DNA of 62,066 bases, the filler included, from Hausera hauseri (Eukaryota), in assembly GCA_046269625.1 (NCBI GenBank). It is 12 parts of 12 records of this genome, joined end to end, with 100 filler letters (N's around TTAATTAATTAA, not from the genome) between each part and the next. Parts side by side here need not be neighbours in the genome. Positions count along the whole stretch, not along the records: positions 4,619 to 8,776 come from JBJURY010729879.1; 11 more parts are not named here. One strand, given 5' to 3'. The notes below the pieces were generated by a model, which had not been told where the DNA came from, made no database searches, and worked only from the letters and a program-made list of their open reading frames with translations. Shown here one piece after another: positions 656-46,613 of this stretch. The first letter of the stretch is position 1. Each line of letters opens with the position of its first letter. The position numbers and the translations under genes are program-made.

Positions 656-819
656 GACTGTGGCGCCCACATGATGTGTTGCCCAGTGGCCCATTTTGGC
701 CGGATACAAGCGGATGCTGCGTTTTTGCCCCGATGTCGTCGATGGCTGTTGCACTTCGTCTTCCATCGCAGACTCTTGCCGTTAGACGGTCTTTACAAAA
801 CTACTGTTTTATAATTGAA

Positions 820-3800
820 AATAACGTGCGAATTAAAAAAATGCGTGACCAGACAGGAGTAAAAATTAACGTGCCGCCACCGACCGTTGAATCAGAGGAG
901 ATCATCGTTAGCGGCGAGAGAGAAGGAGTTTATCAGGCAATGGATATTCTACGACAGATTTATGACGATGCCAGTAAGAATTATTGCTCGTTGAATTTGC
1001 CGATTGAGAAGAGTCAACATCGGTACGTTTATGGCAGCCGCGGTTGTGGCATCATGGAGATACTGGACAAGACTGGAGTGAGTGTGGAGATGCCCTCGAG
1101 CGATTCCGATGATGACACGATTGTGTTATTCGGTCCAAATGATGGATTAGCCACAGCATTATCATTGGTTATTCAGAAATCCGAGTCGATGTTATGCAAT
1201 ACGATCAGCGCACCGAATTGGCTGCACAGATTCATCATTGGTAAACAAGGTGTGAATTTGAATAAACTACTGGAGAAATACGATCGAGTATTTGTCAATT
1301 TCCCCGAAGATAGTGATGAAATAACAATCGAAGGACCGAAAGATGACGTTCGTGACGTCAGTCAGTTACTGAAGCAACAAATCGATGAACTGCGGCGAAC
1401 GATGGACGAGACAGAATTGTCGGTAGATCCGCGATTTCATCGGCATATTATCGGTAGAAATGGTGTGAATATTCAGCGGATGCAGGAGGAATATCGAGTG
1501 CAAATTCGAATGCCTAATAATGCCGGTGGTAATTCGGGTTGGACGATACGAATTGAAGGTGATTCTGATGGAATTGTTGGTGCCCGAGCTGAAATTGAGA
1601 GTATGTCACAGAAATTAGAGAATGAGAAGATAAAAGATGTGATAATTGATCACAAATATCATAGTCAATTGATCGGTGCTAATGGAACTCGAATTCGTGA
1701 CATTCGTCAACAATATCCCGATGTAATGATAACATTTCCCGAATTATCATTGAATAGTGATATTGTGCAATTGCGTGGTCCACGGCAACAAGTTGATAAT
1801 GTCAGCAAATTATTGATGAAAATTTATCAAGAATTTGTGGATAATAATTATACAAGAGACGTGCGGATATTTAAACAATTCCATCGGAATATTGTTGGGA
1901 AAGGAGGACAAAATATTCGTAAATTACGCGAGGAATTATCCATTCGAATTGATTTACCGGATGAACAGTCGGATAGCGATTTGATCCGTTTAATTGGTAA
2001 ACAACAATCGGTTGATGAAGCTGTACAACGAATTGAACAATTACAGTCGGAATTAATTGCTATTCGTGAAGATTCAGTGACAATTCCTCATAATCTTCAC
2101 GAATTGTTAAATGGCCAACATGGGCAAATCATTCGATCTATACAACAAGAATGCGGTGGGGTTATTATAGAATTTCCGTTAGTAGGAAATGTCATTAAAA
2201 TTCGTGGACCGGATAATGACGTTGAAAATGCTAAACAACGATTGTTGGAATTAGCGAATAAAAATCATTTGTTGAGTTATCACGAATTTATGCCGGTTAA
2301 AAATGAATTGCATAAATTTCTTATTGGACGTAAAGGTCAAAAATTGGCGGAATTTCGTCGTCGGCATTCCGTTATTGTAATATTTCCTGATTCTAATGGA
2401 TATTGTCAACCGCAGCAACAACAGCAGCAGCAACAACAACAAAATAAAGATGAAATAGAAATTATCGGCACAAAAGACGCTGTCCAACGAGCCCGCACGG
2501 AATTACACGACATCATTCGATCGCTAGAAAATGACCGTGAACAAGAAATTATTATCGATCCAAAATGGCATCGACATTTTTTCCGTCGTCGTCAGGCAGT
2601 AATCGATGAAATCTATCGGGAATTCGGTGGTGTACGGATTTATTTTCCAAAACAAGATGCCGCAATAGAACAACAAGATAAAGTACGAATTGTCGGTCCA
2701 AAAGGATGCGTTGATGACGCAATCCAACATATTATGGATATAATCGATAATTTGGAATCCCAAACAACAATTTCTGTATTTATAGAACAGCGATATCATC
2801 GTGGATTATTGACGCGCAATATGTCGGATATAAAATTGATTCAATCGGATTATGACGTATCAATTAAATTCCCATCACGGATAATTGATTACGATAACAA
2901 TCCCGCTAATTTTGTGACCATATCCGGTCGACGAGATCATTGCGAATTAGCACGGAATGCACTCATTGAACTCGTTCCGATCACCGTTGATATCCCATTA
3001 GTCAATGAATTCCATCGTAATTTTATCGGACAAAAAGGACAAGGAATTAATGCATTCTCCTCGAAATTTAACGTCGTTGTCAATATCCCACAAGCTAACA
3101 AAGCATCGGATACGATATCGATTAAAGGTACAAAGAAAAACATTGCTGATGCAGAATTGGGATTGCAGGAACTGATCAACGAATGGGAACGTGATAAAGA
3201 AGATCGAATTGCACGGAATTATGAATTATCTGTGGATGTACCAATCGTCTTTCATCGGCAAATCATTGGACAACGTGGGGCGAATATCGAACATTTCCGT
3301 AATAAATTTAATGTCAACATACAAATCCCTGAACAAAATAGTGGATCAGCAACAATTATCATTCGTGGATATCAAACTGATGCCGAACGTGCCCGTGATG
3401 AACTCTTATCAACAATCCGTCGTCTTGAGGCACAGGTAAAAGAAGAACTCCACATCCCAAAAGAAGTCCATCCATTGCTCATCGGGACACGAGGATTCGC
3501 ATTGAAAAAACTCAAAGATCAATTCAAAGTGGACATTTCGTTCCCGAGTAAAACATGCAGTCCAGAACGGGCAAATTTTGTTGAAGTCATCGGTGACAAA
3601 CAAAATGTCGATCAGTGTTGCGATTTTCTCATCGAACGTGCCAATGAATTACTCGATGAATTCGACGAAAGAAATCAGATTCGCGATTTTAACAGTAGTC
3701 GGCAACAGTTCGCTGATAGCAGCGGAAATGCACCGAAAAATAACGGCCCCGGTTTTCTGTTGACTGGTGCGCCGTGGCAACGAGTGCCAGATGCTAAGAG

Positions 3801-3882
3801 TAACGAGGATTTCCCTCGAATGGACGGTGGTGGGGATAAGTCCGTTGTTGGAACTTGCCTCGTGAATGGTCATTCAGAATAA
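820..3882 (+). CDS. HDLBP: Vigilin (multi-KH-domain RNA-binding protein), lacking its N-terminus, intronless; C-terminal part of ORF 448..3882
   Basis: About 12 tandem KH repeats with HxxIIGxxG motifs (HRFIIGKQG, HRHIIGRNG, HRNIVGKGG, HRQIIGQRG). The vigilin-like start TGVKINVPPP and end GAPW...EDFP are present. Confidence 0.92.
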   Translation, partial: NNVRIKKMRDQTGVKINVPPPTVESEEIIVSGEREGVYQAMDILRQIYDDASKNYCSLNLPIEKSQHRYVYGSRGCGIMEILDKTGVSVEMPSSDSDDDTIVLFGPNDGLATALSLVIQKSESMLCNTISAPNWLHRFIIGKQGVNLNKLLEKYDRVFVNFPEDSDEITIEGPKDDVRDVSQLLKQQIDELRRTMDETELSVDPRFHRHIIGRNGVNIQRMQEEYRVQIRMPNNAGGNSGWTIRIEGDSDGIVGARAEIESMSQKLENEKIKDVIIDHKYHSQLIGANGTRIRDIRQQYPDVMITFPELSLNSDIVQLRGPRQQVDNVSKLLMKIYQEFVDNNYTRDVRIFKQFHRNIVGKGGQNIRKLREELSIRIDLPDEQSDSDLIRLIGKQQSVDEAVQRIEQLQSELIAIREDSVTIPHNLHELLNGQHGQIIRSIQQECGGVIIEFPLVGNVIKIRGPDNDVENAKQRLLELANKNHLLSYHEFMPVKNELHKFLIGRKGQKLAEFRRRHSVIVIFPDSNGYCQPQQQQQQQQQQNKDEIEIIGTKDAVQRARTELHDIIRSLENDREQEIIIDPKWHRHFFRRRQAVIDEIYREFGGVRIYFPKQDAAIEQQDKVRIVGPKGCVDDAIQHIMDIIDNLESQTTISVFIEQRYHRGLLTRNMSDIKLIQSDYDVSIKFPSRIIDYDNNPANFVTISGRRDHCELARNALIELVPITVDIPLVNEFHRNFIGQKGQGINAFSSKFNVVVNIPQANKASDTISIKGTKKNIADAELGLQELINEWERDKEDRIARNYELSVDVPIVFHRQIIGQRGANIEHFRNKFNVNIQIPEQNSGSATIIIRGYQTDAERARDELLSTIRRLEAQVKEELHIPKEVHPLLIGTRGFALKKLKDQFKVDISFPSKTCSPERANFVEVIGDKQNVDQCCDFLIERANELLDEFDERNQIRDFNSSRQQFADSSGNAPKNNGPGFLLTGAPWQRVPDAKSNEDFPRMDGGGDKSVVGTCLVNGHSE
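2413..2442 (+). repeat. CAG/CAA repeat encoding Q10 inside vigilin
   Basis: Sequence cagcaacaacagcagcagcaacaacaacaa in frame. Confidence 0.9.
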
Positions 3883-4618: not shown

Positions 4619-4939
4619 ATGTGAACTGACAATTTTCGCAATATTTCCTTTGAGAAAAATCGACAATGTATTTCGGATATCGTTACTCAACGCCAAGTTA
4701 CTGTCAACATTTCTAGTTGTGTCTTTCATTGTATCCAAATCATCATCGCTAATCCTTTTCACTAATAGATCATATTTCACCGGTTTGATTTTTACCGTTT
4801 GCGTCAAAAGCAATTGAATAGCGTTGCGTAAATAATGTAAGTTGTATCCATTATACAATCGGAAATTTCTGAGCAAATATTCGCTGTACCGTGGCTTTTT
4901 TGAGAGACTGTCACTTGTTGAATTGTTTTCCAAATACAC
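4619..4939 (-). CDS. Hypothetical viral protein, truncated by contig end
   Basis: Open frame co-oriented with neighbouring genes, with TATAAATA upstream at 4985-4978. No recognisable domain. Confidence 0.4.
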
Positions 4940-5254
4940 TGTTTAAAGAAGACAAACGTAAAATGAAATTGCATCTCTATTTATATCAAATTTGTTTATA
5001 CCGGTTTGTTTTCATTGTAAACAATAGACACTTTTTGTGTATTGCCTCATATTACAAATACACATTGTCTAATCACAATAGTGTATACTAGTTAAAATTA
5101 CTTCCACAATATTGAAGCCCATGACACTATTTTGTCCCGTTATTGAAGTGATTTGTAATAAATGTAAACAAGAGATATTTTATTGTAAACAATAGATATT
5201 TACCTTGTGAATATTGTCTCATCAGAATGATACAAATTACCTTCACGTTTCCGT

Positions 5255-5722
5255 TCATTCGTAATAAATGTGTACAATTTCCATTATAACACATTTATAT
5301 TCTGGACATTGGTGTGTTACTTTGGTGGAACACATTTGACAAATAACAAGATGGCCGCACATTAAGAATACCGTATGCACTTCTCTTTGTTTACATAGTA
5401 CACACATAAACTGACAGTCTCGTACTTTGTCCATCATTTTCTCTTTCAAGTTCGTTAATTCACCGCGTACCTTTTCAACAGTATTAAAGTCATTTGTATC
5501 ATACAATCGATGAATGTACATTTGATTTAACACAATAATTAGATTTTCTAGAGCTGCAATCTGTTGTCATCAATGCTATTGACGCTAAATATTCTTTAAA
5601 TCCAAAATTACCTGCTGCTCCCGCAACCAGATCACTATCAAGTACTTGTCACCATCGTACCAAGTCTGAAATTGATAATCCATCAAAATTTTGCAATTGC
5701 TTCAATTGATTAAATATTTCCA
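5255..5722 (-). pseudogene. RING-HC (IAP/MDM2-type) E3 ligase-like protein with disrupted 5' part
   Basis: C-terminal CVLC..VFLMCGHLVICQMC..CPEYKC. The probable start MEIFNQL at 5722 is separated from it by a stop and a frameshift. Confidence 0.75.
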
Positions 5723-6324
5723 TGATGATTCATATAATTTCTACCCGTAATTATAATTTTTGAATTATTCAATTGATTAATACGATGGACCTTATTTAGG
5801 GAAAGAAAGAAACAGAGAAATACAATTATGTATTTGCATGAAATGTAATCAATACAAAGCCGTAGACATTTCTTGTAAGAACAATGCGGTCCATAATCAC
5901 GATACAGACATCTAATATTGTTAGGTACCATCGTCAGCGAGCTATTTGATGTTGATGTTAAATACGTCGCCATTCGCAACTCGGGAAAATGTAAATGGCG
6001 TTGTGTAAACTTTTGTCCGCCAATTTGATCTTTAATGTAAAATATTGTATTTTCAATGTCAAAGCGATCACAAATGTCTCGCATGATACATGATACGCAA
6101 AACGTTGAATTGTCTTCGTGCCAACAAAGTCCATGACGAAGTCGTATAAGACATCCGTTGGTAATTTTAGCTTTTTCTGTCAACTGATTCCGCATAATGG
6201 CAGGCTTGAATACATACACAAGCGGTTTGAAAATGTTACAGACGTCCATAACGCATAATTCCTTTGTTAGGTACCGGGCATTATAATCTTGGAAAGCTTC
6301 AATATCTATAAATCCTGTCGCCAT
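5710..6324 (-). CDS. DEDD/DnaQ-like RNase H-fold nuclease-like protein of the kind seen in invertebrate Polintons
   Basis: N-terminal FIDIEAF...KEL, VFKP and HGLCW motifs, plus a C-terminal Cys/His cluster. Confidence 0.55.
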   Translation of the reverse strand: MATGFIDIEAFQDYNARYLTKELCVMDVCNIFKPLVYVFKPAIMRNQLTEKAKITNGCLIRLRHGLCWHEDNSTFCVSCIMRDICDRFDIENTIFYIKDQIGGQKFTQRHLHFPELRMATYLTSTSNSSLTMVPNNIRCLYRDYGPHCSYKKCLRLCIDYISCKYIIVFLCFFLSLNKVHRINQLNNSKIIITGRNYMNHHGNI

Positions 6325-6410
6325 TACTTATCATGTACAGAATCATTTTTGTTTATAACACAAACAAAACAACTAACAATTAGTATTATTATTATTGTCA
6401 TCACAAATCA

Positions 6411-6889
6411 CTAAACATAGGTGGTTTTAAACATATCACCAAAGCCTAATTTTCTTTACCAAAATTTCTTTGCGTTCATTTTGTATTGCTTCATTGAAAC
6501 AAAACAATCCCCATTGTTCCGGTGACATTACACTGAATTCAGCCTCTTCACGTCGAAGAAAAACGATTTGTGCGATTGCACTGCCTTTCGAAAAAGCATA
6601 CGGTTCCCCAGATTGGTTTTCCAGCAACAGTTTAATTTCATCACGAAAGTCTGAATCAATGACCGCCCACAACCGTCACTCCGAGTTTTACCAATCCGCC
6701 TTTCGATAAAGGTTGACCGTAGTAACCGGGTGGAATCGCCAATAAAATCCCAATCGTTATGCATTTGATTGTGCTGTCCGAAATTGTCGTCTTGACATTG
6801 GAAAACACATCGTAGCCCGCACTGCTTGCCGTAACACGTCTCAGTACAGTAGCGCTTTCATCCGTCAAAATAATCTTTAAATCATTCAT
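6411..6889 (-). pseudogene. dut: Trimeric dUTPase, frameshifted
   Basis: Motifs SAGYD, YYGQ..SKGGL, VIDSDFR, AIAQ and a terminal GFG, spread over ORFs 6656-6913 and 6436-6672. Confidence 0.9.
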
Positions 6890-6975
6890 GATCATTATTA
6901 ATGAAAAGCCCATTACACATGTATATTTATACTCATTGTTGAAGAAGAAAAAAATTAAAGCAAAAACATGAACAT

Positions 6976-7296
6976 TTATTGATAATCAAAAATTGCTTCG
7001 GAGAAACGCCAAATTAAGCTTTTGATACTGTCCTTTTCTTTGTATCCCCGCAATTCAATGTTGAGTCGACATTTTAAGTCATCGGACGCATTAGATATTT
7101 CACGACCGATGAAATCAATCAGTTTAGATTTTGCGGTCGGTAAAACAACATACTGCTGTTGTAAGGCTGTTTCGTTCAGTTTTAAATCCATATTTAATTG
7201 ACTTAAAGCATCAACAAGTTTCTCAACATTTTTACTCGATACCTGCCTTACACGATAACTGTACTTGGGTGTGATCAACAACACCGGATCATTCAA
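6976..7296 (-). CDS. Conserved hypothetical Polinton protein
   Basis: Clear homolog at 41701-42057 (NDPV...YSY.V...KL.DAL.QLN.D.KLNET...KL.DFIG.E.S). Confidence 0.7.
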   Translation of the reverse strand: MNDPVLLITPKYSYRVRQVSSKNVEKLVDALSQLNMDLKLNETALQQQYVVLPTAKSKLIDFIGREISNASDDLKCRLNIELRGYKEKDSIKSLIWRFSEAIFDYQ

Positions 7297-7314
7297 CGAA
7301 ATCTGTACAGACGT

Positions 7315-7698
7315 TTACAGATAATGCATTTCATACTTTCGAAAACGTCGCGTCAGTAAAAATGTCGGTGTTTGATGCGTGAGCTTTAATTTTCGTTTCT
7401 TTGTTCCATTAGTCATTCGCGCTTGTCGTTTTAATTTAGGCTTTTCTAATTTTTGGACAGGTTCTATTTTCGTTTCCAGACAGTTGACATTAGAATTGTT
7501 CCCAACAAACACTCGTGACAAATCGGAACCCTCATTGTCATCATCACCATTGAATATTATCGCTCTATTTTCGTCTGACATGTGTTGACGAAGACAGTTG
7601 ACATTGTCATTCTTGTCACTAAAGAGCCATGACCAATCTGTACTTTTGTCATTGTCAGAAGTATTATACAGCAGAATCGTTTTATCGTCGTTTTCCAT
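7315..7698 (-). CDS. Hypothetical Polinton protein (acidic N-terminus with DWSWLF, basic C-terminus)
   Basis: Decayed homolog at 41372-41700. The start is taken as MENDDK because the upstream 'MDYKY' overlaps a TATA box conserved in both copies. Confidence 0.6.
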   Translation of the reverse strand: MENDDKTILLYNTSDNDKSTDWSWLFSDKNDNVNCLRQHMSDENRAIIFNGDDDNEGSDLSRVFVGNNSNVNCLETKIEPVQKLEKPKLKRQARMTNGTKKRKLKLTHQTPTFLLTRRFRKYEMHYL

Positions 7699-7746
7699 CG
7701 TAGTAATGTCTGAACGAATATTGGAATGATATTTATAGTCCATTGA

Positions 7747-8226
7747 TTAGAGTATATTACTTTGATTCAATAAAACACTTATGCGGTGTTTAATTTGATT
7801 AATAGCCGTCTCAAAGTTGATTGACCGAATCCCCAGTACGACAATTTTTCCACTGCTAAACACACTGACACAAAGTGGGCGGAATAGTGTTAGTCGCAGT
7901 GAAGGAAACAGTTTGGGCTCATAAATACATTCGGCAGCCATTGCTAATTTGTGCAGATTAACTGATGGTGGTGATGGTGATGAGCAATCTAACTGAGTCG
8001 TTACAGTTATTGATTCAATTTGGTCAATGACAATTCCGAATGGTAGATATCCATTAATTGTGATTTGTTTGCGACAACCCATAATACGACACTTTCCCGA
8101 TGGAAATATGATGCATGTAATATTCAGTGGATATTTGTGGACATACTGCCTTGGCTTCAATTGATTAAACGGCTGTACATTAATACTCTCAGTAACATGT
8201 CCGCGGTAGTTGATATTAGCTATCAT
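7747..8226 (-). CDS. TATA-box-binding protein (TBP)-like, 159 aa, core domain only
   Basis: Two TBP half-repeats: IANI...CIIFPSGKCRIMGC and IESI...VNL..L...CIYEPKLFPSL...VFSSGKIVVLG. Confidence 0.85.
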   Translation of the reverse strand: MIANINYRGHVTESINVQPFNQLKPRQYVHKYPLNITCIIFPSGKCRIMGCRKQITINGYLPFGIVIDQIESITVTTQLDCSSPSPPSVNLHKLAMAAECIYEPKLFPSLRLTLFRPLCVSVFSSGKIVVLGIRSINFETAINQIKHRISVLLNQSNIL

Positions 8227-8282
8227 GATTGATTGAAATAATGTTCATGCTGCACCTATTTATGTGTGTGGTTATAAACAAA

Positions 8283-8776
8283 ATGTATGAGAAATGCATA
8301 ACCAACGACATTAAGCTGCAGAATAGTGCCATTTTCCAAATTGTGGGCCAAAGTGGAAGTGGAAAAACGCACATTATTTGCAAATTGCTGCCGAACTACC
8401 GTGAAATATTCCAATCGCCGCTGTTCAATCACATTTACTGGCATCAGGGCAGTGATGATGATGGAGAGTCCGGTTTGACACATTGGGAATTTTGTAAACT
8501 GAAATCGGTAACAGTAATTGATGGGTTTGACGAGAACTGGTCAGGGAGATTACGCAACGTTGACGTTATTGTTATTGACGATTTATCTCAAGAGGCAACG
8601 AAACAAACCGACTTCAACAACCTGCTGACGAAGATTGCACGGCACCGTGGTGTGACGGTTATTTTCATTACGCTAAACATGTACCATCAGGGCGGAAAAC
8701 ATCGAACAAGAAATCTAAACGTACACTATTTGGTGTTGTTCAAAAATCCCCGTGATCAGACTATCATTGATTATGT
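8283..8776 (+). CDS. A32/FtsK-type DNA packaging ATPase, 3'-truncated by contig end
   Basis: Walker A GQSGSGKT, Walker B VIVIDD, and ARH...IFIT.N...R.N.HYLVLFKNPRD, typical of Polinton ATPases. Confidence 0.92.
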
Positions 8777-9290: not shown

Positions 9291-10698
9291 ATGACATTTT
9301 TCAAATTTTCTACAACAATTGGCGGTGTGTTGATTTTGGCATTCTCGGTGGTGATAACAATTACATACGTAGTGGTTTTTATATTACACATCAGTGCAAT
9401 TTATTACGCTCGACGCAGACTTTATCCAAAGTTTGACATGGAGAGTCGACAAGGTGATACAAAGTTTCCTGGTGTATCGATTATAAAACCGGTTATGGGA
9501 ATCGATAATAATTTAGAAATTAATCTTGCAACATATTTCAAAATGAAGTATCCCAACTATGAACTGTTGTTTTGTCTTCCATCTGAAGATGATGAAGCTC
9601 TACCAATCGTGAAGCAATTGGCCTTGCAACATCCGGAAGTTGATTGCCAGATTCTCGTTGGTATTTCAGATGTTGGAGTTAATCCGAAAATTAAAAATAT
9701 GTACAAAGGATTTCAGTCAGCAAAATATTCATTGATACTCATTTCCGATAGTGGTATTTTCATGAAACCTGACACGTTATTCGATATGGTACTGTCGTTA
9801 GAATCTGACGAACGGATCGGTTTAGTCCATCAAGTACCTTTTCTTCATCCCAGTATCAGTAGTCGATTTGCGCATTTGTATCAACTTGTCTATTTTGGTG
9901 GTTGACATGCTAAGATTTACATGAGTGCAGCATTTTTTGGATTTAATTGCACAACGGGTATGTCGTGTCTGTTTTGGAAACAAGTACTCGACGAAATCTG
10001 TATTCAGTCATTCGGCTGTTATTTAGTCGAAGACTATTTCATTGACAAATATTTCTATGACAAAAAATGGCGTTGCGTCATTAGCAGTCAACCGGCGTGG
10101 CAGAATTCAGCGTCCGATACAGTTGCTAAGTTTCAAGGTTGAATTATGAGGTGGTATCAGTTGCGTGAGTCGATGGTGCATCATACGATTTTGTTTGAAT
10201 CGCTAACCGAGTGCGTTCTGAATGGATCCTTGATGAGTTGGGTTTGCTATTTTTTCTTGCCCTACTGGATAAATCCCGCCGTGTATTTCGTTTGTCACAT
10301 TCTGATTTGGTTTCTGTTGGATTATACGTTGTTGCGTCACCTGTTCCCACCGGGTGAAACTGTGAGTCTCAACAAAGCGGAATTTTTAGCCGTTTGGCTG
10401 TTTCGAGAATCAACATCACCGTTTTTTACAACTCAGAGCTCTATGTCGTCGATCAGTTGAGTTGAGAAAACATAAATTCCGAGTCCACTTGGGTGGTTTG
10501 ACAGAAGAGATCACCGAATCCAAATCGTCAAATCTGTCAAAATGCGGCGATTCGGTTGATGGTAAACGTATGATGAACAATACTCGATCTGTGTTCTCTT
10601 CCAAAGATTCGGACGTTAAAAGTTCTCTGAAAAACTTTCAGTCACATTCAGCTAATCCCTATTCCGTTGTCAGTCTGGATGTATCAATAAAATCCTAA
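9291..10698 (+). pseudogene. UGCG: Ceramide glucosyltransferase (glucosylceramide synthase), with two in-frame TGA stops and one frameshift
   Basis: PGVSIIKP, GVNPKI.N, ISDSG, TGMSCL, EDYF, RW..LR and GG..EEI motifs. Stops lie at 9903 and 10140; the frameshift is near the T-run at about 10423. Confidence 0.9.
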
Positions 10699-12819: not shown

Positions 12820-12920
12820 NNNNNNNNNNNNNNNNNNNNNNNNNNNNNNNNNNNNNNNNNNNNTTAATTAATTAANNNNNNNNNNNNNNNNNNNNNNNNN
12901 NNNNNNNNNNNNNNNNNNNA

Positions 12921-13040
12921 ATGAGTGAAGGAGATAATTGTTATACAAACTTTTATAATAAATCTCTTATGAATAATTCTATTTTACAATCATCAAGTCA
13001 GGTTGAGGTTGGGATGGTAGAGATGCGATCTACTAACAAT
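12921..13040 (+). repeat. Dispersed repeat of about 120 bp, also at 48838-48958
   Basis: atgagtgaa...taattgttata...tataataaat.tcttatg.ataattc...caatcatcaagt...ggtagaga.gcgatctactaaca occurs at both places. Confidence 0.8.
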
Positions 13041-13245
13041 ATCAACATGTTCATAACAGTCAAGAAAGGAATATTCCAAAGATTTTTACCACAAATGGTA
13101 ATTTTATTAATTCTCATTTACTAAATTAATTATATACTCAGATGTCAACTTTATCAAATGACCCCAACAAAACATTGAAAAATGTGAAATATACACATAT
13201 TGTGTATCAAATGGTTCACATGATGTCCAGAAATGCCATGAAAAT

Positions 13246-16200
13246 ATGAGAAAATATTATGGCCATATCTGGAACAGCGAAGAATATTTTCTATGCCCCG
13301 AATGTGAGACTGTCAGCGCAGGAGAATACTGTAAGTTTTATGAATTTCATAAAACCAACTTGTGCGATTTCACGGCCAAGTCCAAAAAGGCCATATTCAA
13401 GACAAGCATTGTTCCCGTTATGCCTTCAACATCTACACAGATGGGAGGTATTGTTCCAGTTATACCAACCCTATCTGCACAGACGGGGGCATTGTTCCGG
13501 TTATGCCTTGTACAGCTGCAGCGCCGCTAGTCCTCGCAGCATCAACCTCGGCACAGCGCCCTGGATCCCCGGCACAGCATAATGGATCCTCAGCGCAGCG
13601 TAAACGATTCGCAGCGGCAGCGAATGATGTATCACTAAAAAGTCAACGGCAGCGAGCAGTTGATGCCGCTGCACTGAAGATCAAAATGCGGCGATACTCC
13701 ATAGATGCAATGGGACAGACATCGCTCCATGAATTCCTGGAATATTCAAAGGAGGCAGCTGGAATTCTCCAGGACAACTTGTCGGAGCTGAAGGCCCTTA
13801 AGGTGAACTTCAAATTGGAAGCCACCTTCACCAATGTCGAAGGAGAGCAATCTAGTAGAGCCGTCAAGACAAAGAACAGGCCACTATTGAAATCCTCTAA
13901 CATTAAGGACTTCATTATTGAGGACTATGCAAGGCTCATCTACGAAGCCGAAGAAAGCCAAGACAAGAAGAGCGGTTGGACTCTAGCAGCAATAAAGGGG
14001 TTACTTGTGCATGTGCACAAGTATTCTCCCATGAGAGGCAGCTTCTGCATACCGCTTCCCTAATGGATAGTTAAGAAACAGGCATGCATCAATGTCCATA
14101 ATGAGGACAGCATGTGTTTCATGTATGCTATTTTGTCAAAACTCGTCCAGGATCAACATAATGCTTCCCGAATTTGGATATATGACAAAGTGCAGCACAC
14201 ATACGACTTTAGCTATATTTCATTCCCGCCGAGCCTCGATGAAGTCGCGAAATTTGAAAGCGTCAACATTTCCATCAACATCTTCCGATTGAAGGAGGAC
14301 AAATTTTATCCCTTACATGTGTGCAAGGAGGAATTGGAAGATCATAGGGATCTGCTCTTGCTAAGTGATGGAAAAACGAGGCATTTCATCTGGATCAAGA
14401 ACTTTGAGCGTTTTGTAGGATCCCAAATATCAAAGAATAAGTCAAGGCGGGAAATCTGCAAACGATGTCTATCCTATTTCAGTGGTGACATGGCCGCAGA
14501 AAAGCTCAAGGAGCATAAGACCCATTGCAATACAAACTATAGCATCATAGCAGAATTCCCCAAGGAGGATTACCTGGAATTCAGAGTCTGAAAAGATGTT
14601 AAAAGTGCCGATTGTCATATATTGTGACTTTGAGGCCATCCTCAGCTCAGTTCACAGCTGCACTCCGAATCCGCAGCAAAGCAATGCGACAGCTTACCAA
14701 TATCATGAGCTCTCATCATACTGCATGTATGCATTAGGAATGGACAAAGAACCATTCCTATACCGGAGTTCAGATGCAGCGCTTCATTTCATGAAGCGCT
14801 TGGAGGAAAATGCACATAAGATCTAAAATATGCAGCAGCAGTGTAAGAATGCTATGAAAATGTCGCAAAAGGATAAATGTGAATGGCAAAATGCAACACG
14901 GTGTTACTTGTGTGAAAAGCCTTCACATTGGACAAACACAAAGTCCGAGATCATTGCCACACAGGCATGTATCGAGGCGCAGAGTGCAATGATTGCAACT
15001 TACGCTGCAAAACATGCACATATGTCACCGTGGTATTCCACAACCTCAGAGGCTATGATTCCCATTTCATAGTTCGGGAATTGGGGGCTCTTGAAGGAAA
15101 CATCGATGTGATCCCAAACAGTGAGGAGAAATGTCACATTCACGAAGCATGTGCGGAGAATCAGGCTTTGTTTCATAGACAGCTTCCGCTTCATCAGCGA
15201 TGCGGACTATCAGCATGCTCAAAATGTCTGGAAAGCATTCAAATGTAGGACACTAGGGGAATATAGTGACATCTATCTCCTCACAGATGTGCTTCTGCTA
15301 AAGGATGTATTTGAAAGCTTCCGGGATGTCACACTTAAGAGCCACAAATAGGATCCAGCTCATTTTTTCACAGCTCCGAGAATGAGCTGGGCAGCGATGC
15401 TACGCTATACAGGCATACGGCTCCAGATCTTGAAGGACTATGATATGATTCTGATGAACGAGCGAGGCATTCGGGGCGGAATACATCCAGGCCATCATCA
15501 TATATAACATGCCTGGATGCAAATAATTATATGGATGGGCAATGAGTGTCCCATTGCCCTATGACAATTTTAAATGGGTGTATCATCACGAAGAGCTCTC
15601 AATACAAGATATGGAACCCTATGGAGATACGGGATACATATTGGAAGTGGATGTAGAATATCCCCATAGCATCCATTCAGGGCATGAACAACTGCCTTTT
15701 CTCCCGCAGAGCAAGCAACCACCAAATAGGAAACACAAGAAGTTGCTTTGCCACTTGGATGATCGGGAGAGGTATGTAGCCCACTATATAAATCTCCAGC
15801 AGGCTATGAGGAATGGTGTCAAAGTCACAATGATCCATCGTGCCCTATCATTTAACCAGTCTCTGTGGTTGGAGCCCTACATAGACTTCAACACGCAGCT
15901 GAGGGCCAATGCCAAAAATGACTTCGAAAACGATGGAGAACATCCACAACAGGATAAATATCGAGTTGGTGTGTGACTGGAAGCGGGCAAAGAAGCTCAT
16001 TGCCAAGCCCAACTTCCATTCCAGCACAATATATACAGAAAACCTGTGAGCATACATATGCTCAAGACATCCCTGGAGTTTAACAAGCTGATCTATGTCG
16101 GGATGTCAATCCTGGACTTGTCAACGATCCTAATGTATGATTTTCAATACAACATCATGGTCCTCACATTCAAGTCCATACAACTGATGTATATTGATAC

Positions 16201-16662
16201 TGATAGTTTCATCTATCTGATCCATACGGAAGATCTGTTTGTGGACTTTGCTAAGTTGGCACAGCATATGGATGCCTCAGACTATCCGAAGGATCATCCC
16301 AACTATTCAATTACCAACAAATAGGTCCTTGGGGAATTCAAAGACGAGGTGAATTGGCCAATCATCTTGAGATTTGTGGCACTGCGTAGCAAAATGTATG
16401 CTATTGATGTACGTGGCCAAGTAAAGAAGCGGGATAAAGGGGTTCAAAGTCGACCTTAGCCAAGATCAGCTTCGATGACTATGTGAGAGTTCTGCACGAG
16501 CAGACTCACATCATATCAGAGATGCGAAGGATCCAGTTTAGGGCTCATACCATTGAGACAGTTACACTACTGAAGAAAAGCCTAGATTGGATGGATAACA
16601 AAAGGCAGATCCTGGGTGATGGAATAAGCACACTATCTTACGGGCATGCTAAATTAATGTAA
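13246..16662 (+). pseudogene. Polinton/adintovirus-type protein-primed DNA polymerase B, copy A, decayed
   Basis: Motifs SGWTL, IYCDFEA, VRDHCH.G.YRG..C..CNL, FHNLRGYDSHF, DANN.YGWAM, YIDTDSF and DNKR...TLSYGH. Many stops, frameshifts and internal deletions. Confidence 0.92.
13405..13508 (+). repeat. 42-bp tandem repeat (about 2.5 units) in the N-terminal region of PolB copy A
   Basis: Units encode SIVPVMPSTSTQMG / GIVPVIPTLSAQTG / GIVPVMP. Confidence 0.7.
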
Positions 16663-16836
16663 ATATCTTTTTTATGACGTGTTGAATTTTTTGTATTAAT
16701 AAATCTTATAAAAATATCGTGTTGTCTTTTTGATCAAGTAATGCAGGATATAGAATAAGGCGAAGTAAAATTAAGTAACTACTGTGTAGGATAAGGCCAA
16801 CTAATTTCATAACACATTTATTTCATAACAATATAA

Positions 16837-19107
16837 CTATGGCAATGGGACGCTCATTGCCCATCCATACAAGTTGTTGGCATCCAGGTATAATATATGT
16901 GAGGATTCCTTGGATGAGTCGTATTCGGTCATATACTTGTTATTGGCCTCGCTAAACCGGTGAATGGCCTGGCATATTCCGCCTCTTATGCCTCTCTCAA
17001 TCATAAAGATCATGTCGTAATCCTTAATGATCTGCAGCCTAATACCAGTATATCTCAGCATTGCTGCCCAGCGCATCCCTGGATCCGTAAAGAAATGAGC
17101 CGGATCCAATACATGACTCTTCATTGTAACATCCCTGAAGCTCTCAAAGACATCTGTCAGCAACAGCATGTCCGTCTTGAGGTATATGTCGCCGTATTCC
17201 CCTATTGTTCGGCACTGAAATGCCTGCCAGACATTCTGGGCATGCTGGTAGTCAGCATCACTGATATCGCAATCAGAGAGGATATTGTAAAAATCCTTCT
17301 TGGCCGACAATAAGGTCTCATCCAGTGTTTCCCATGAAGTTATGTAGTCATAAGGAAAGACGCCTTTCCTCTTGACGCGGTCAAATGCAGTGGGGAAGAA
17401 CCGCTTCGTCTCCTTGAGTTCTTCTGCAAGGAGGTTCTTCACTAAACCATCCAGTGAAGACGACATGAAACCACAGCTGTCTATGAATCGAAGCCTGATT
17501 TTCCCAACATGTTTCGTAAATGTGATATACTTCTCACTATTAGGTATCACCGCAATGTTTCCTTCAATGTTGCCTAATTCTCGGACTATGAAATGGGAAT
17601 CATAGCAACTGAGATTATGGAACACTACAGGCACATATGTACATGTTTTGCAGCAAAGATTGCAGTTATTGCACGCTGCTCCTCGATATGCATCTGTAAA
17701 ATGGCAATGATCCTTGACTTTATGATTTCCCTTGGTGAAGGACTTGTCGCACTAGTAACATGTTGTTGCCTTGCGCTATTCTTCTGCTTGATTCCACGAC
17801 ATGCTGATGGTACCCTTATGCTGCTGAAGCATGTTTTCAAGCTTATTATCCATATCTTCAAGTCGTTTCATGAACTGTGCTGCTGTACCTGGACCTCTGA
17901 ATAGAAATGGTTCACTGTCCAGTCCTTTGGCATACATGCAATACGATGAGAGTTCATAATATTGATATGTCGTTGTGCTGCTATGTTGAGGACTGGTAGT
18001 GCAGCTGTGACCTGGCCGGATAATAGCTTCAAAGTCGCAATAAATAACTATTGGGACGTTGATCTTTTTCTCGAACTCCTTGAATTCAATATTGTCTTCC
18101 TTGAGAAATTCTGACCTTACACAGTAATTGTTGCTGCAGTACATCTTGTGCTCTGCAAGCTTGTCCACTGCTGAATCACCACTGAAATGAGACAGACATC
18201 GCTTACATATTTCTATGTGAACATGGTGATTCGTACTTTTGGATCTGACTAGACGCTCAAAGTTCTTTATCCAAATATAATGTTTCTTTTCTCCATCATC
18301 TAGTAGGAGCAGATCCCTATGATCTTCCAATTCATTATCATATATCCTCAAAGGCTAGAATTTGTCCTCCTCATCCAATCCAAAGATGTTGGTTGATATG
18401 TTGTTGATTCGACTAAACTTTTTAATTTCATCTAAGGATGGAGGGAATGCCATACATTAGAAGTCATAGTTGTGCTGCACATCCTTATATTGCTAAACTC
18501 GTGAATCAGTATGTTGATCAGGTACGAGTTTTGATTGAATGGCACACATGAAACACATGTTGTCATTATTATGGACAATGACACATGCTTTTTTATTAGC
18601 GATCCAATCAGGAAGTTGAATATATGAACTACCCTGCATGGGGGCAAATCTGTGCCCATATACAAGCAATTTCTTGATGGTTGTCAGAGTCCATCCGCTC
18701 TTCTTACGCTGGCTCTCATCGGCTTCACGGATCAGCTTTGAATGCTCTTCATGCAGCCATTCTACTATATTGGTGGCTTTAAAAATGGGTCTATTTCTTG
18801 CCTTGAAGGCCCTTTTGGACACTTCGCCATTACCATTGACGTATGTGGCCTCAAGTTTCATATTAGCCTTAAGGGCTTTGAGCTCTGCTATGTTATCCTT
18901 GAGAATTCACTTTATTTCTTTCTCTGTGTACTTCAGGAACTCCTTGATGGTTGTTTGACCAGTTGCATCAATGATATATTTGCGGCATTTCCTTTTTAAT
19001 GCTGCAGCATCAACTGGCTTCTGTCTTTGACTCTTTGATGGAGCCGCTACGCCTGATGCGCCTGATGGGTCTGATGCGCGTTTTAGTCCTGCATCTGGCT
19101 GTGGTAC
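16837..19107 (-). pseudogene. Protein-primed DNA polymerase B, copy B, decayed and truncated after motif A
   Basis: Motifs KKSGWTL, IYCDFEA, FHNLSCYDSHF, RKGVFPYDY, GIRGG and YLDANNLYGWAMSVPLP, followed by an abrupt end. Confidence 0.92.
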
Positions 19108-22362: not shown

Positions 22363-24489
22363 AAATCTCTACAAACAGCGGCAAAATTTAACATTTTCGC
22401 AACTTGTTCACTATTCACCCCCAGCCCCACCCCATCATAATTCATTCATAAAATGTCTTAAATTTAAGCTCTGACAATTTACTGTAAATTAAATGTCAAA
22501 GTTATAACTGCCCCGACCACCTGAAATCACTTCAATGTTTGTGGCCCCTGGACGGAGAATTTTGGTAATTGAATTCTACAATGTATGACTTGAATTTTTT
22601 TCATACTTGGTATTCCATATAGTTCAGATTCATTTTTCATTTAAATGCCATAAATATTGATAAATAAAAACAGCTCAATTATGAACTATATAGAATATTA
22701 AGCTAAATGGCCTAAAGGTCATTTTAAGGAAACCTATGCTCAACTCAATTCATTCCTTATTACATTACACTTCTATCATTAAGAAGTAAACAAAAAAAGT
22801 AAATTTTGAAAACATACAGGCTCCAATTCGTGAGGCAAATTTAATTCATCTAAAATGATCTCCGGCTGCGCCAATATCTCAGATTTCATTTCTGTATCCC
22901 AATCGTCCTGCCAAAGATCCTCAGTTTGACCTTGTTGGTCCTCAAAAGAAGACGTCGAATATAGCTACTTACATAATGAAATTATCATAAATATTCGGTA
23001 CTTTTTTGGGATTCTGATTAACTTCTCCCTTTTTCCCCCAATTCAATCTATCCGGTCTCATGGCCGAGCCATGTTGCTGTACAACATCATCAGCGGTAAA
23101 ACTAATAACAACTAAATACTCGATTCCGGTCGCCTTTAAAGGCTCCATCTTTACTCCACTTTTTCCAATGGTTCTCGTTCGTATACAAATTTTGACTGTA
23201 TGGACGTGCTGCGTTCTGGCCACGATTCAATTTCATTTCCACTTTCTGCCATGGAATATCTTGCGTATATGAGAAATCATCCGGATTTACGGTGAACCTT
23301 TCAGAATTGTTCAAATTTTCATTGGAATTATCACCACTTGCGTTGTTGGGTTTATTTGGACGGGTGTTTCTGAACTTACTACAAAGAAATTCAACGGGTT
23401 TAATTTCATGAGTTCTTTACGATTCACTCNNNNNNNNNNNNNNNNNNNNNNNNNNNNNNNNNNNNNNNNNNNNTTAATTAATTAANNNNNNNNNNNNNNN
23501 NNNNNNNNNNNNNNNNNNNNNNNNNNNNNAACAAACATAGTGCACAGTACAATCAACATGGACACACATACATTCATATATACATTATATAATTTTATTA
23601 TATATACAATTTATGTACATTTATGCACCCCCTATAACTCTTCCGTTGGGGTTTGACCGAATTCCCCAACCAGTCAATCTGGTTCCAACACCACAGCTGG
23701 CGAAAGGAAGACCGTAGTGATTCCGGGATACCGCATCCCCAAGGCACTCCGCCCAACGCACGCCCAAGCGGAAAACAATACCGACAGGCGTACTGCCTCG
23801 AAGGAGCAAACCCGATCAGAAGATCGAAAACAGAGCCCAGAGGGACACCATCTCCAGTGGAAAACGACGCCGCATCCGGGAGTGTCAAGCACCGTGCCGT
23901 TCTTATTCTGATTATCAGACGGTGCAAGAGTTGCTGCAGCGGAGCCGTTTCGTGCGGCACCTCAGCAGAATGCCCGAGAACAATCCGTACTGCCTACCTA
24001 CAGGACATCTTCGTAGGTTCTACGCCGATGGAGACAGCCGACGGTTGTTCGACTTCTCTGCCTTCTTGCCAGTCTTTATAAGACTTATGGCGGCAACAGA
24101 TCGGCTATTCGAGTCTATGGCTCCATCAGAGAGCCAGTTGATTCCTGACCGCCGAACCGCTGAGAAGCGGACGTCTAGGACAGTGAGCTCTAGCCCAGAA
24201 GAAGTTCCCATACCGCTCCGGCGACGCCGGTTGGAGCCGACAAGACTTGAACCATCATCAACTAATTTCAGTTTGGACGACATTCCGATTTGTCCGCGCC
24301 GAAATCCGAGGATTTACCCGGCCCTTTCCTCAACCGAGAATTCGTACGCTTAGGCGGACGATTTGCGAGAACTGAATAAATATTACTCTCATTGTTTTTT
24401 CGTCTTATAAGTGTTTGTTTCAGTTGTTTTATTCGACTGTGTTTGAATGTTTATCCTTTTTATATTTAAAAGTTCCATCCACAAAGAAG

Positions 24490-27400
24490 GAAAAACTACA
24501 ATGGTGGCAGCGAATACCGCACACACGTCTTTTTCTCACAGAACCGTACAGACTGGTTCGGGCATTTCGATAAACTCAGCCGTTGAAAACAATTCGGCTC
24601 AAACACCGCACACATCAGATGACAGGAGTGAAGCTAAAATTCAGAGTAGTGCCGTCGAAAACAATCCTGCCACAAATACTAACATCACTAAAAGTGATAG
24701 CACGAGACCCGCTAACCCTACGACTATCACAATGAGCAATTCCGAACAAGTGCTAAAATATCCTAGCACTGAGCCACGCACCTATATCGTAAAATCGGAA
24801 TACAAACCAGAGTATACTAATCGTGCCAAAATAGCACACATAACAAGCGAAAAGTCGCTACGCAACCACTTACCCAATCGTCAATCAATTGAAATCGCCA
24901 ACAAAATCCACAATGGTAAAATAACATCGACCGATAGTACTCCAAACGAAGTACAACTCATTGTACAAAATTGGCGTCGGACGAAAGCTCATCACTTTCC
25001 ACCTATCCTAGACATGTCGGGTATGCTGGAAGTTCTAAAACAACAATATCCCGAGCATACATTTTCCCCTAATGGAAAATTATTGCGTAAGAATAATTGC
25101 ACAATCAGGGCAATATTCACTTTAAACAGCACCATACTAGCGACTCCCAGACAAAAAGGAGGCGTCGATACTCACACGCCCGACAAAAAAGCCGAAACTG
25201 CATCATCAGCACCGGCCAAACCTCCCAAATTAGCATCTCCAACCTTCTTCATAAGTTCGGACGGAACTTCATTGAAGTGGTTCCATGTGTTTGAAACAAG
25301 GGCCACTCAATTCAGCATCAACGGCCAACTAAACAAGGCCTTAACACTTATACAATGCCTGCAGCCAACAACTCCCGCAGCAATAACGGATCTAAACACG
25401 TTACTGTCAGATGAAAAGCCCTTTGACAAAATCAAAGCAGCCATATGCAAAGCATAACTGCCATCCCAACAGGACCATTTCATCCTGGTCTTCACAAAGC
25501 GACATACATGGAATATAAAACCTTCTGGTCTGCTTCAAAAGTTACGCTCAGACTTGAGCAATGCTGAGTTGGACCTCCACACCAACAGGCACATGCTACG
25601 GCGCTACTTCCTAAGTAGTTTGCCCAACCAAATTCAAGCGGCATTTGTGATATTACCTCCCTATACCACTTTGGACGAAATGGCATGAAAAGCCGACAAA
25701 ATACATAAGTGCACTAAAGGCACCGTAGAATCCACACCAACGGAAAACATCCACTATGTAACAGCGACCAATCCAAATAAGCTGGACACCATTATTGCCG
25801 CACTGCAGGCACTTGTAACGCGCAACAATCTTCCAGCTATGGACAAACCGTCATCTCCGCCCCAATCCCCCAAGAGAAAGAAAGGCAAATTTTCCAAAAT
25901 CTGTCATTTCCACACACGATTTGGCGAACCCGCCTACAAATGATTTTATGGTTGTCAATTCGACAAGCCATTCGCAAATATAAAAATGCAAGACACTTGC
26001 ATTTATCACAAACATTTCAGTCCAGACGTAAAAATCTGTCGACCCGGCTGCAAATTTCACAAGCCATGGGTCCAGACGACCAATGGCACGTCGACTGGAA
26101 ACCCAATCACCACAACTGCTGTGCATAGATAGCGAACCCATTGTCGATGCTATTTTCACTCTCGAGGCGGAGCCACTACACTCTGACATCTCAAAACAAC
26201 TCGATTTTCTAATCGACACTGGTGCACCTTTATCGCTGATACCTAGCGCCTACGCTGGACCTACACTGGTCTCGCATGAATCGCTCAAAGCTGCCAATGA
26301 CACGAGTGTAGCAACCACAGGTACATTATATCTACAATTTCACCTACAATACCCACAATACGCTTGGTGATTCATATTGGCCGATGTCATGCAACCAGTC
26401 CTTGATTCTCACTTCCTAGATTACTACAATCTCATCGTTAATTGCCGAAATCAACAACTCACCTGCGGGAGCAATCCACAACCTCTACCGGCATTTATAC
26501 TAACCATAAACGGAGTCACCGGCATCAAAATCGGAAATCCCATTGACATCGCACCATTGCTGCAAGTGCAATACCCTAACCTATTGAAACGCTCAGCACA
26601 ACTCACAGAGAAAGAGGTGAAGACATCACACTTTCTCGTCACATCATGTGACCGACCGATTCGGCAAACCCGGAGGGAGCTTGACCCTGTCAAGAGAGCA
26701 GCCGCGGAAGCCAAATTTCGACACTTCGAAGAAACGGGCATTATACACCGCTCCACATCACTGTTGGCATCACCATTGCACATGGTTCCAAAAAAGGAGG
26801 GATCATACCGGCCTTGTGGTGACTATAGAAAGTTGAATAACGTCGCCATCCACGATTTATAGCCAACACCGTTGGTAACAGACATATTGCATTGCCTACA
26901 TAGTGCCGCAATATTCAGCACAATAAATCTGTAACGGGCATACCACCAGATCCCAGTGGCTACCGAAGACATTCCAAAAACGGCCGTAACAACGCCTGTT
27001 GGTTTTTTCGAGTATTTACGCATGCCTTTTGCTTTACGGAATGCAAGTCAAACATTTCAACGCCACATAAACCAAATCCTCATCGACATGCCTTATGCGA
27101 TCACATATATAGATGATATATTGATTGTATCATCCGATTAAGCGACTCATAAACACATCTCCAACATGTGTTTCATAGGTTGAATGAAAACAACCTACAG
27201 TTGAACATAACCTATGTTCATTCTTTAAAAATGAAGCCGTATTTCTCGGACTTCGGTTAACACCACATTGTCACAGTCCAGTTCCTGAGCGACTAGAAAT
27301 CATTAAACAAATACCGAAGCCATCCACAGTGACTGGACTTTGCAGCTTCCTTGGCACGATCAATTTCTGCCATCGCCACATTCCGCATTGCTCGGAAATC

Positions 27401-29400: not shown

Positions 29401-29797
29401 CACTCATTCATGATGTTTTTTAAAAGGCAACGAGTACGCTAGATGCAACCATCTCTGAAACCCTAGCGGGTGCAGGAGCACTAAAAAACGTCGGGGAAAG
29501 TCGGCAAAAAGGTGCCAATTCATCACGGGTGAAAAGTGAACAAGCGTCAAATTCAAGTTATATTGAATAAGTACCGATAGGAACAATTCAGACGACGAAT
29601 GCCAACAAAGATTACGTTCTCCCCAATTTAAATTTTAAAATGATTTCATTTAGAAATCTAAAAATGATTAATTTCGCTTCAAATTTCTGTGGAAAACNNN
29701 NNNNNNNNNNNNNNNNNNNNNNNNNNNNNNNNNNNNNNNNNTTAATTAATTAANNNNNNNNNNNNNNNNNNNNNNNNNNNNNNNNNNNNNNNNNNNN

Positions 29798-30000
29798 TCT
29801 TTGAAACAGTTATTATACACGGTTTCCGGTATAGCCTGCAAAGCCTACAGCAAATTCTCTTGGATGGCTTCTATTGACTCAAATCGATGTCCGCAAAGTG
29901 GTAATTTCAATCGAGGAAAAAGGCGAAGTCACACGGAGCCATATCTGGCGAATACGGCGCTTGTGGTACGATATTCATTTGATTTTTGATGAAATACGGA
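29798..30000 (-). mobile_element. Mariner transposase C-terminal fragment
   Basis: Minus strand reads FIKNQMNIVPQAPYSPDMAPCDF...RLKLPL.GHRFESIEAI, the mariner YSPDLAPxD signature. Confidence 0.85.
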
Positions 30001-30001
30001 C

Positions 30002-30306
30002 TGTCGTTGCAACGATAATACTGACATTGGGTTGAATAAAAGGAGAGTCAGGATTGATAACTTTATTTCTAACCTCAAAAACAAATTCTGTGAGTAATTG
30101 ATATTTTGAGCACAAACAGAAATAACGCCCAGTTACTAAATGGTAGGCACTAAATCGGAAAATTCAAAATTTTGTTGATAAATCAATTGTCGTAATTATT
30201 AATTTGAAACTTATATGAATAGATGTAAAAGTGTATTCACATAGTGGGGAAAATTTCCTCACCGATCCGCTAACCCCTACAGTGCAACCACATTTCAGGC
30301 ACTACA
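30002..30306 (-). repeat. Putative 3' LTR (305 bp) of the adjacent Ty3/Gypsy element
   Basis: TGT...ACA termini (tgtcgt / actaca), AATAAA inside on the minus strand, a G-run just upstream (30310-30314), and an end exactly where mariner coding begins. No second LTR is available. Confidence 0.6.
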
Positions 30307-46345: not shown

Positions 46346-46613
46346 GAACTGCTTGGATAACTTTAGGACTTTTCATTTGGAAAATATTTAATCGACTGTT
46401 TCGTATTTCATTTCGACTAGCTTTAGATTGAATAAATTTTGTTAGTTTACTCTGTTTTTATTTTTTGAATAAAAAATACTATTAATAATTAATAATAATC
46501 AATAATTGTACCGAAAACACTTGACTTACCTTCACGGTTTTTGAAAAAACCGCCGAGAAAATTTGAAGTAGTTCGTGAACTTTAGTAGTGAATTTAGTAG
46601 TCATTTATTCAAA

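Follow-up and report, generated by a model that had tools for sequence, protein, structure and literature searches.

The open reading frame at positions 7747–8226 (minus strand) raises the question of whether a Polinton/Maverick-type virus can encode its own TATA-binding protein (TBP) and, if so, which promoters such a protein would serve. The window, that is, the whole stretch of 62,066 nucleotides analysed here, consisted of 12 separate contigs joined by N-spacers, and the TBP-like gene was located on the 4.2-kb contig at 4619–8776. The frame was open, intronless and 159 codons long, with a reduced N-lobe (residues 1–64) and a complete C-lobe (residues 65–158) according to Pfam PF00352, AF2, Foldseek, VIA-align and the family alignments. 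The E-value and score against the Pfam TBP profile were 2.7e-14 and 53.2 bits, respectively, compared with a curated cut-off of 22.9, and the match covered only residues 70–137 in the C-lobe. The AF2 model, obtained with a 10-row alignment, had a pLDDT of 87. Foldseek returned 44 matches to this model at E ≤ 0.001, and a TBP stood in every listed row down to rank 44. Furthermore, VIA-align placed residues 1–154 of the model onto residues 160–337 of human TBP (Z about 12, 146 residues aligned, rmsd about 3 Å), which indicates that both repeats are present; the next fold after TBP appeared at Z 6, and Rep proteins were weak matches (Z about 6). As judged from the predicted structure, the TBP fold of the 159-aa ORF is genuine and has two lobes. 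The sequence-only reading had described an intronless two-repeat TBP core of this length, and the description was borne out by the profile and structure searches.

The relatives of the gene were then collected. A word-based search found nine relatives, and a profile search of 1.84 billion protein representatives gave 56 matches at E ≤ 1e-30. Among the best 150 profile matches, 134 carried the R-x-M-G signature of the family or started inside it, and more than 130 clusters at 50% identity had the family form. A metagenome scan yielded 44 TBP-family loci (given L numbers below), with a Polinton core gene in 15 and a shared neighbour in 36; the eight loci lacking a shared neighbour were all shorter than 1.6 kb. 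L019 carried TBP, the ATPase, an integrase with a chromodomain, capsid-like genes and pPolB, and adenain was also present in L023. L051, which was retrieved by its capsid gene alone, was near-complete, with pPolB, ATPase, integrase, capsids, adenain and TBP. pPolB and the rve integrase thus stood together in L019 and L051, and an integrase was also found on the sibling contig at 38162–42639. The packaging ATPase lay on the window contig, and the double-jelly-roll (DJR) major capsid, minor capsid and adenain genes were spread over L016, L019, L023 and L051. The model of the major capsid protein (MCP) was poor (pLDDT 46.5), and its top structural matches were DJR capsids; the labels minor capsid and pX were assigned from position and mutual similarity. 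Unlike the capsid of the TBP-less L053, the family capsid gave no match to the Pfam DJR-like_dom, which points to a distinct virion clade. The TBP-fold gene belongs to a conserved Polinton family. The assignment of the element itself to the Polintons was upheld by the ATPase on its contig and by the core genes of the relatives, whereas no pPolB, integrase or capsid gene was found over the whole 4.2-kb contig, on which the ATPase was truncated by the contig end; the contigs stop short of the element termini.

The dN/dS values among related loci were 0.07–0.38 in 14 of 15 pairs, and the remaining pair was saturated. In one public run, 17,722 contigs were distributed over all 30 bins of the window contig, most of them 90–99% alike, indicating that the family has many variant copies; among the pieces listed from that run, none spanned the whole contig stretch. 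The window contig belongs to a high-copy, probably decayed Polinton. For the phylogeny, 92 of 138 rows were used (every second representative match was dropped), comprising 83 family rows and nine outgroup rows, none of which was labelled as an animal TBP or TRF. A 100/100 branch parted the 83 family rows from the nine cellular or large-virus TBPs, so that the phylogenetic check put forward earlier gave a clear split, but it names no donor because the outgroup was thin. In the scan of viral contigs for the TBP family, only the large-virus-like L001 was recovered; its ordinary two-lobe TBP (9683–10231) lay between PolB and ribonucleotide-reductase-like ORFs on a 45-kb viral contig and grouped with cellular TBPs. 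The family capsid had no match in viral contigs and GenBank phages, and the ATPase search of viral contigs gave five weak, unrelated loci. No TFIIB-family Pfam match was found among 14 ORFs of L019 and 12 ORFs of L051, these elements being incomplete and their small ORFs partly scanned.

Several further features of the relatives were recorded. L035 (1–2062) and L044 (1–1568) formed a sub-lineage whose TBP, encoded beside PLA2 and ATPase genes, apparently has a full-length N-lobe; its upstream regions contained CATAAAC and the canonical TATAAATA, and the box described below may differ with the lobe. GT...AG intron-like stretches preceded the 112-aa ORF and the Cys-rich ORF in L002 (2690–2756), L004 (1440–1503), L012, L014 and L021, and these suggest spliced early genes. 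In addition, a ubiquitin-conjugating-enzyme gene (L019, 225–719, minus strand) and a dual-specificity phosphatase gene (L004, 4008–4316, plus strand) were located near the TBP gene. Binning contamination probably explains why the Polinton contigs L051 and L052 sit in genome bins titled as bacteria (Lysobacterales and Planktothrix).

The surroundings of the gene in the window were mapped on the same contig. On its 5' side, a degenerate TATA-like word (8256–8264) and an initiator-like word (8236–8244), neither an exact match to the patterns used, were read from the minus strand and would form a candidate early promoter (8236–8264). A TATAAACA box on the plus strand (8273–8280), a candidate late promoter, was followed by the A32/FtsK-type packaging ATPase (8283–8776, plus strand), which was cut by the contig end and had an uncertain start codon; such a box was present in seven of eight ATPase upstream regions. 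The Pfam match of the ATPase was weak (Pox_A32, E 2e-4, under the cut-off), and the assignment also drew on the alignment and on 63% identity to the L019 ATPase. Downstream of the TBP gene, all on the minus strand, lay an acidic 142-aa ORF (7315–7743) that had no family match but has acidic counterparts at the same place in L002, L004 and L021, and a conserved 112-codon frame (6976–7317) whose family was found in 13 of the 44 loci and gave no Pfam or PDB match. In the window copy the latter was interrupted by an in-frame stop (7315–7317) near the point where the relatives begin; a short intron was ruled out as its cause, since the frames do not fit. A dUTPase remnant (6463–6913), 81–84% identical in nucleotides to the sibling contig, ended early and matched profile positions 3–66 of 129. 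A second TATAAACA box (6350–6357) stood 33 nt 5' of the next gene, a DEDD-like ORF (5710–6324) with 34–35% identity to ORFs of L023 and L019, no Pfam match and family members in 14 of the 44 loci. From its motif, we take this ORF to be, probably, the gene named MAEL on adintovirus maps. The MAEL label stands in the text of Fig. S2 of Starrett et al. (PMC8502044). Further along were a RING-finger frame (5258–5566; zf-C3HC4_3, E 2.8e-7), presumably an IAP-like C-terminus, and a third TATAAACA box (4993–5000) before a frame (4619–4942) that runs off the contig. This last frame resembled the 112-aa family region weakly (E 1e-5 to L039) and is perhaps a paralogue.

The separate contig at 38162–42639 (minus strand) held a degraded sibling element with the ATPase C-terminus, integrase, minor capsid, a pX-like ORF and the MCP start, and it was 74% identical in nucleotides to the TBP contig over 1.1 kb. 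The TBP gene and the ATPase N-terminus were absent from it, with no TBP profile match, and it is a deleted copy. It retained four TATAAACA boxes, all on the coding strand, though the TBP gene was gone. At 12920–19107 lay two degraded copies of pPolB facing opposite ways, with 79% nucleotide identity between the arms, 33% identity to the L019 pPolB and no TATAAAC sites.

The TBP gene of the window is probably itself a decayed copy. Its second stirrup reads YEPKLF, with a Lys private to this copy, a Ser occupies a column in which 127 rows carry Asn, and a short insertion is found at residues 81–87. Decay is also suggested by the neighbouring genes: the dUTPase is truncated, a stop interrupts the 112-codon frame and the ATPase start is doubtful. 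The copy departs from the family at 2 of the 15 columns that are conserved to 90% or more; 11 of 129 rows are at this level, and the count was weak evidence alone. The conserved box begins 10 nt from the ATG at 8283, compared with a distance of 32–48 nt in six relatives, and the window copy had no ATG where the ATPases of its closest relatives begin. The 56 bp reported between the divergent starts is exact for the ATG at 8283, but it is probably not the true spacing of the TBP and ATPase starts and it is not a family feature. Nor is divergent transcription conserved: it was seen on the window contig and in L014 and L018, whereas the two genes were in tandem in L003, L010, L019 and L035, and the TBP gene of L023 and L051 sits after adenain.

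Residue conservation was counted over 129 family rows, some of which duplicate each other. Three of the four DNA-wedging (intercalating) Phe were kept, each in 128 of 129 rows, and the Phe of the first stirrup was replaced by Pro in 122. On the DNA face, the lobe-1 Asn was kept in 109 rows, and the lobe-2 Asn was changed to Ser or Thr in 127; the lobe-2 Leu had become Asn in 127 rows and the strand-1 Val of lobe 1 had become Asn in 91. The lobe-2 Thr was kept in just 24 rows, and the lobe-1 Thr was Met. The replacement of the strand-5 Val and Thr of lobe 1 by Arg and Met in 129 of 129 rows is a circular count, because the rows were chosen by that signature. The family as a whole had neither the four intercalating Phe nor the paired central Asn and Thr of the canonical DNA face. 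The glutamates of the TFIIB stirrup (E-x-E) were kept in 117 and 126 rows, respectively; at the second of these positions, Lys was found in one row, that of the window copy. A shortened first stirrup and YEPKLF had been noted from the sequence, and both are present in the window copy. The N-lobe also lacks two helices. The argument on TFIIB contact drawn from YEPKLF was not supported: the family keeps both glutamates, and the private Lys belongs to a probably decayed copy.

The N-lobe helices H1 and H2 were missing from the AF2 model, with no long helix at residues 52–64. The segments that hold them were 37 and 22 aa, compared with 47–51 and 31–36 aa in eight cellular-like TBPs, and the family median for the H2-holding linker was 24 aa (22 aa in the window copy). 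The canonical H2 with its basic regulator patch was absent from the window copy. The N-lobe helices are apparently retained in longer members (L035, for example), so the reduction seems to be graded; most members were bare cores of 135–200 aa. In its passages on TBP surfaces, PMC7221094 assigns the TFIIB contacts to two stirrup glutamates, of which C.L3.2 is only about 40% conserved in known viral TBPs, and places the surface for TFIIA, TAF1, Mot1 and Brf largely on H2. With the TFIIB stirrup kept and the H2 regulator surface gone, the family looks shaped to use host TFIIB and to dodge host regulators. The loss of one Phe and the polar DNA face could weaken or abolish DNA binding.

A variant TATA box, TATAAAC(A), recurred before the virion genes. 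TATAAAC stood within 90 nt upstream of the start in 20 of 22 genes of the ATPase, post-ATPase, MCP and MAEL-like groups, compared with 4 of 37 in the TBP, acidic and orf250 groups (Fisher 7e-10; shuffles averaged 0.63 and never exceeded 3), the late and early groups having been defined after the motif was seen by eye in upstream regions and near-duplicate loci having been excluded. Of the 27 TBP upstream regions, 10 contained canonical TATAWAWR, 18 an initiator-like word and one TATAAAC. No box was found within 90 nt of four minor capsid, three pX, two adenain and three integrase starts, several of which had it at 99–107 nt, and the MAEL-like gene of L051 had TATAAAT in place of TATAAAC. Intergenic boxes mostly lay 32–52 nt before the ATG. 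All 32 occurrences of TATAAAC in five virion modules fell on the coding strand. Moreover, within the final 40 codons of ORFs, 10 of 11 Tyr-Lys codon pairs were spelled TATAAAC, compared with 0 of 23 elsewhere, which argues that the word is not a protein constraint. In L051, which was found after the idea had formed, 11 TATAAAC sites stood on one strand and none on the other, and the 8-mer occurred seven times against 2.1 expected, a count reached by one of 200 shuffles. In the window, seven of nine TATAAACA sites fell on the two Polinton contigs; the total of nine was marginal (5 of 100 shuffles).

The box was also compared between loci with and without the gene. For 15 TBP-bearing loci (L051 and 14 of the 44), an automatic count placed TATAAAC upstream of 37 of 93 ORFs; for 21 TBP-less loci, the figure was 3 of 247. 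The latter were polinton-like viral contigs found by integrase or pPolB, with no TBP profile match; since they were partial contigs from other virion clades (ATPase 23–24% identical), the co-occurrence of gene and box is one clade contrast and not independent replication.

Taken with the protein, the sequence patterns lead us to favour, at somewhat better than even confidence, a reading in which the viral TBP would recognise the TATAAAC(A) late box and recruit host TFIIB and Pol II, much as herpesvirus ORF24 does but in minimal form. In the relatives, most packaging and capsid genes stand behind one non-standard TATA box, and the viral TBP is therefore likely to be a one-gene switch aiming host Pol II at the late genes. 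An ordinary TATA-plus-initiator promoter, served by host TBP/TFIID, would drive the viral TBP gene first; viral TBP would then bind TATAAAC(A) and turn on the packaging and capsid genes. This implies a preference of viral TBP for TATAAACA over TATAAAAG or scrambled DNA. The N-lobe of TBP covers the 3' half of the TATA element. The remodelled N-lobe would then sit on the 3' half of TATAAAC(A), and the conserved lobe-1 Arg would lie near base pair 7, where C probably suits host TBP poorly. The conserved stirrup would recruit host TFIIB and Pol II, and a TBP lacking H2 would escape the contacts with Mot1, TAF1, TFIIA and Brf1 that need this helix. By its title, PDB 1qn3 has TBP bound to a C(-25) variant of the TATA element, and the relevant passages of PMC4402545 state that C-G pairs in TBP-bound TATA elements turn Hoogsteen, which avoids a clash with a TBP leucine. 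We too favour the earlier proposal that the protein serves host Pol II as a viral basal factor, and the proposal now has a matching promoter-like box, whereas its YEPKLF argument does not stand. Whether an animal-associated Polinton clade in fact runs an autonomous early-to-late cascade by way of one half-dismantled TBP of 150 residues, which would read TATAAAC(A), borrow host TFIIB and ignore the regulators of host TBP, appears to us evenly balanced.

Other explanations of the box and the protein were considered. A host factor, either Forkhead or a host TBP/TRF tolerating the variant, might read TATAAACA, with the viral TBP as an accessory activator or acting elsewhere; we regard this as unlikely. 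ATAAACA, which is contained in the box, matches the Forkhead consensus, the co-occurrence of box and gene rests on a single clade contrast, and the sibling contig at 38162–42639 has the box and no TBP gene. Host TBP can moreover bind a C(-25) variant (PDB 1qn3, by title; PMC4402545, in the passages cited above). A core-promoter element nevertheless fits the strict 32:0 strand bias and the spacing of mostly 32–52 nt before the ATG, where intergenic, better than an orientation-free enhancer site does. In addition, the box was near absent from the TBP-less loci, and the DNA face of the viral TBP has been remodelled in a conserved way. A decoy, which would not bind promoters productively but would damp down host or antiviral transcription by sequestering TFIIB (or Brf1/2) at its acidic stirrup, is improbable in our view. 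It would account for the TFIIB-contact glutamates being the best-kept surface (117 and 126 of 129) in a protein with one Phe, the lobe-2 Asn and both Thr changed; but near-invariant DNA-face positions, such as the lobe-2 Asn change (127 of 129) and the three Phe (128 of 129), are needless for a pure decoy, which also leaves the box unexplained.

The viral TBP might also bind the repeated box for genome organisation, packaging or replication, a suggestion that we consider slightly less probable still. The box recurs along the virion module and Rep proteins show TBP-like folds, albeit weakly (Z about 6), yet there was about one box per gene, 5' of the starts and on the coding strand, and the TFIIB stirrup was retained. 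The least credible explanation by a wide measure is a one-off host TBP retrocopy inside a decayed element. The ORF is intronless and the window copy shows decay, but a retrocopy is refuted by the breadth of the family (more than 130 clusters of the same form), by purifying selection (dN/dS 0.07–0.38) and by the Polinton neighbours. The 100/100 branch from the nine cellular or large-virus TBPs, and the 17,722 contigs of one run along the whole contig, speak against it as well.

The Polinton TBP was compared with known TBPs. Like cellular TBP (PF00352; 1cdw, 1c9b), it has a two-lobed saddle, three of the four Phe, the lobe-1 Asn and the E-x-E TFIIB stirrup. It differs in being virus-borne, in its identity of about 20% and length of 145–160 aa, in its polar DNA face and in the Pro that replaces the first-stirrup Phe, and lobe 1 of the subclade of the window lacks H1 and H2. 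As described in the passages of PMC12529657 that concern them, the TBP mimics of beta- and gammaherpesviruses (KSHV ORF24, EBV BcRF1) act on TATTWAA late promoters, and the likeness to the Polinton protein extends to a viral TBP-like protein, a polar-rich DNA face, a variant TATA box on virion genes and host Pol II. The same passages present ORF24 as a large protein in a six-factor complex that binds Pol II directly and is predicted to be incompatible with TFIIB; unlike it, the Polinton protein consists of the bare TBP core, retains the TFIIB stirrup and would be paired with a TATAAAC(A) box. The structural similarity to BcRF1 was weak (E 0.024), and no large multidomain protein with a Pol II-binding N-terminus was present, so the relation to the herpesvirus vTBPs (ORF24/BcRF1/UL87) is one of analogy only. 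The TBPs of large dsDNA viruses share the viral TBP fold and the loss of the N-lobe regulator signatures, and are, in the relevant part of PMC7221094, mostly paired with a viral TFIIB and variable in their glutamates (about 40% at C.L3.2). The Polinton family differs from them in the retained glutamates (117 and 126 of 129) and in having no TFIIB in the scanned ORFs.

Among Polintons/Mavericks (adintoviruses), the relatives have the expected pPolB, rve integrase with chromodomain, A32 ATPase, adenain and DJR-like capsid; they differ from other Polintons in the TBP gene, the box and a capsid with no Pfam DJR-like_dom match. In the part of Starrett et al. 2021 (PMC8502044) that deals with non-animal datasets, the Fig. 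5 legend includes the entry 'TBP' for a MELD virus whose PolB is adintovirus-like. This is a legend entry only, and no family, remodelling or promoter is described with it. In the text of Fig. S2 of the same paper, no TBP label was found on the animal adintovirus maps. The mentions of TBP seen in PMC10675990 concern HK97/mirusvirus-like elements, those in PMC12220804 are confined to its reference list, and word searches of further polinton papers gave neither TATA nor TBP. No account of the family, the remodelling or the box was found in the polinton, adintovirus and Maverick literature, though subscription papers, Repbase and supplements may hold one, and TATAAAC combined with polinton terms occurred 0 times among the matches listed. 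The system had been put forward as undescribed; no paper describing the family was found, but a 'TBP' already stands in the 2021 legend, in the part of the paper noted above. A viral TBP with a late promoter is a known kind of system, and the Polinton TBP family, its remodelling and its box appear to be new.

Other contigs of the window carried features of their own. A 1369-codon frame filled a whole contig (33953–38061, plus strand) and combined UGGT-type thioredoxin with USP7-type MATH, UCH and ICP0-binding domains, either by chimeric assembly or as an odd fusion. An intronless 1049-aa vigilin with 13 KH matches (733–3882, plus strand) lay in frame behind a Ty3/gypsy-like fragment. The contig at 53502–62066 (minus strand) was endogenous-retrovirus-like, with gag-like, protease, RT/RNase H/integrase and env regions; its GC content of 45% was unlike that of the other contigs, and a second organism in the sample may be its source. 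Glycosyltransferase-21 pieces, two broken gypsy-type elements, a short-intron myosin tail, a DDE_1 transposase and a GPCR-like frame were located at 9291–10460, 23530–33852, 42740–48523 and 49954–50955.

According to the abstract of PMC8097293, Maverick particles have not been observed. Whether Mavericks make virions, and how capsid expression is timed with no RNA polymerase of their own, become directly testable questions with a named factor and an 8-bp box. The finding would show how much of a TBP can be removed, and its specificity changed, before it ceases to use TFIIB, and a compact orthogonal pair of TBP and promoter would be on offer. If the autonomous cascade is real, no viral late-transcription switch smaller than this TBP and its box would be known; it would have converged with the TATT promoters of herpesviruses and would give direct evidence of a regulated virion-producing phase in these 'transposons' that needs no helper virus.
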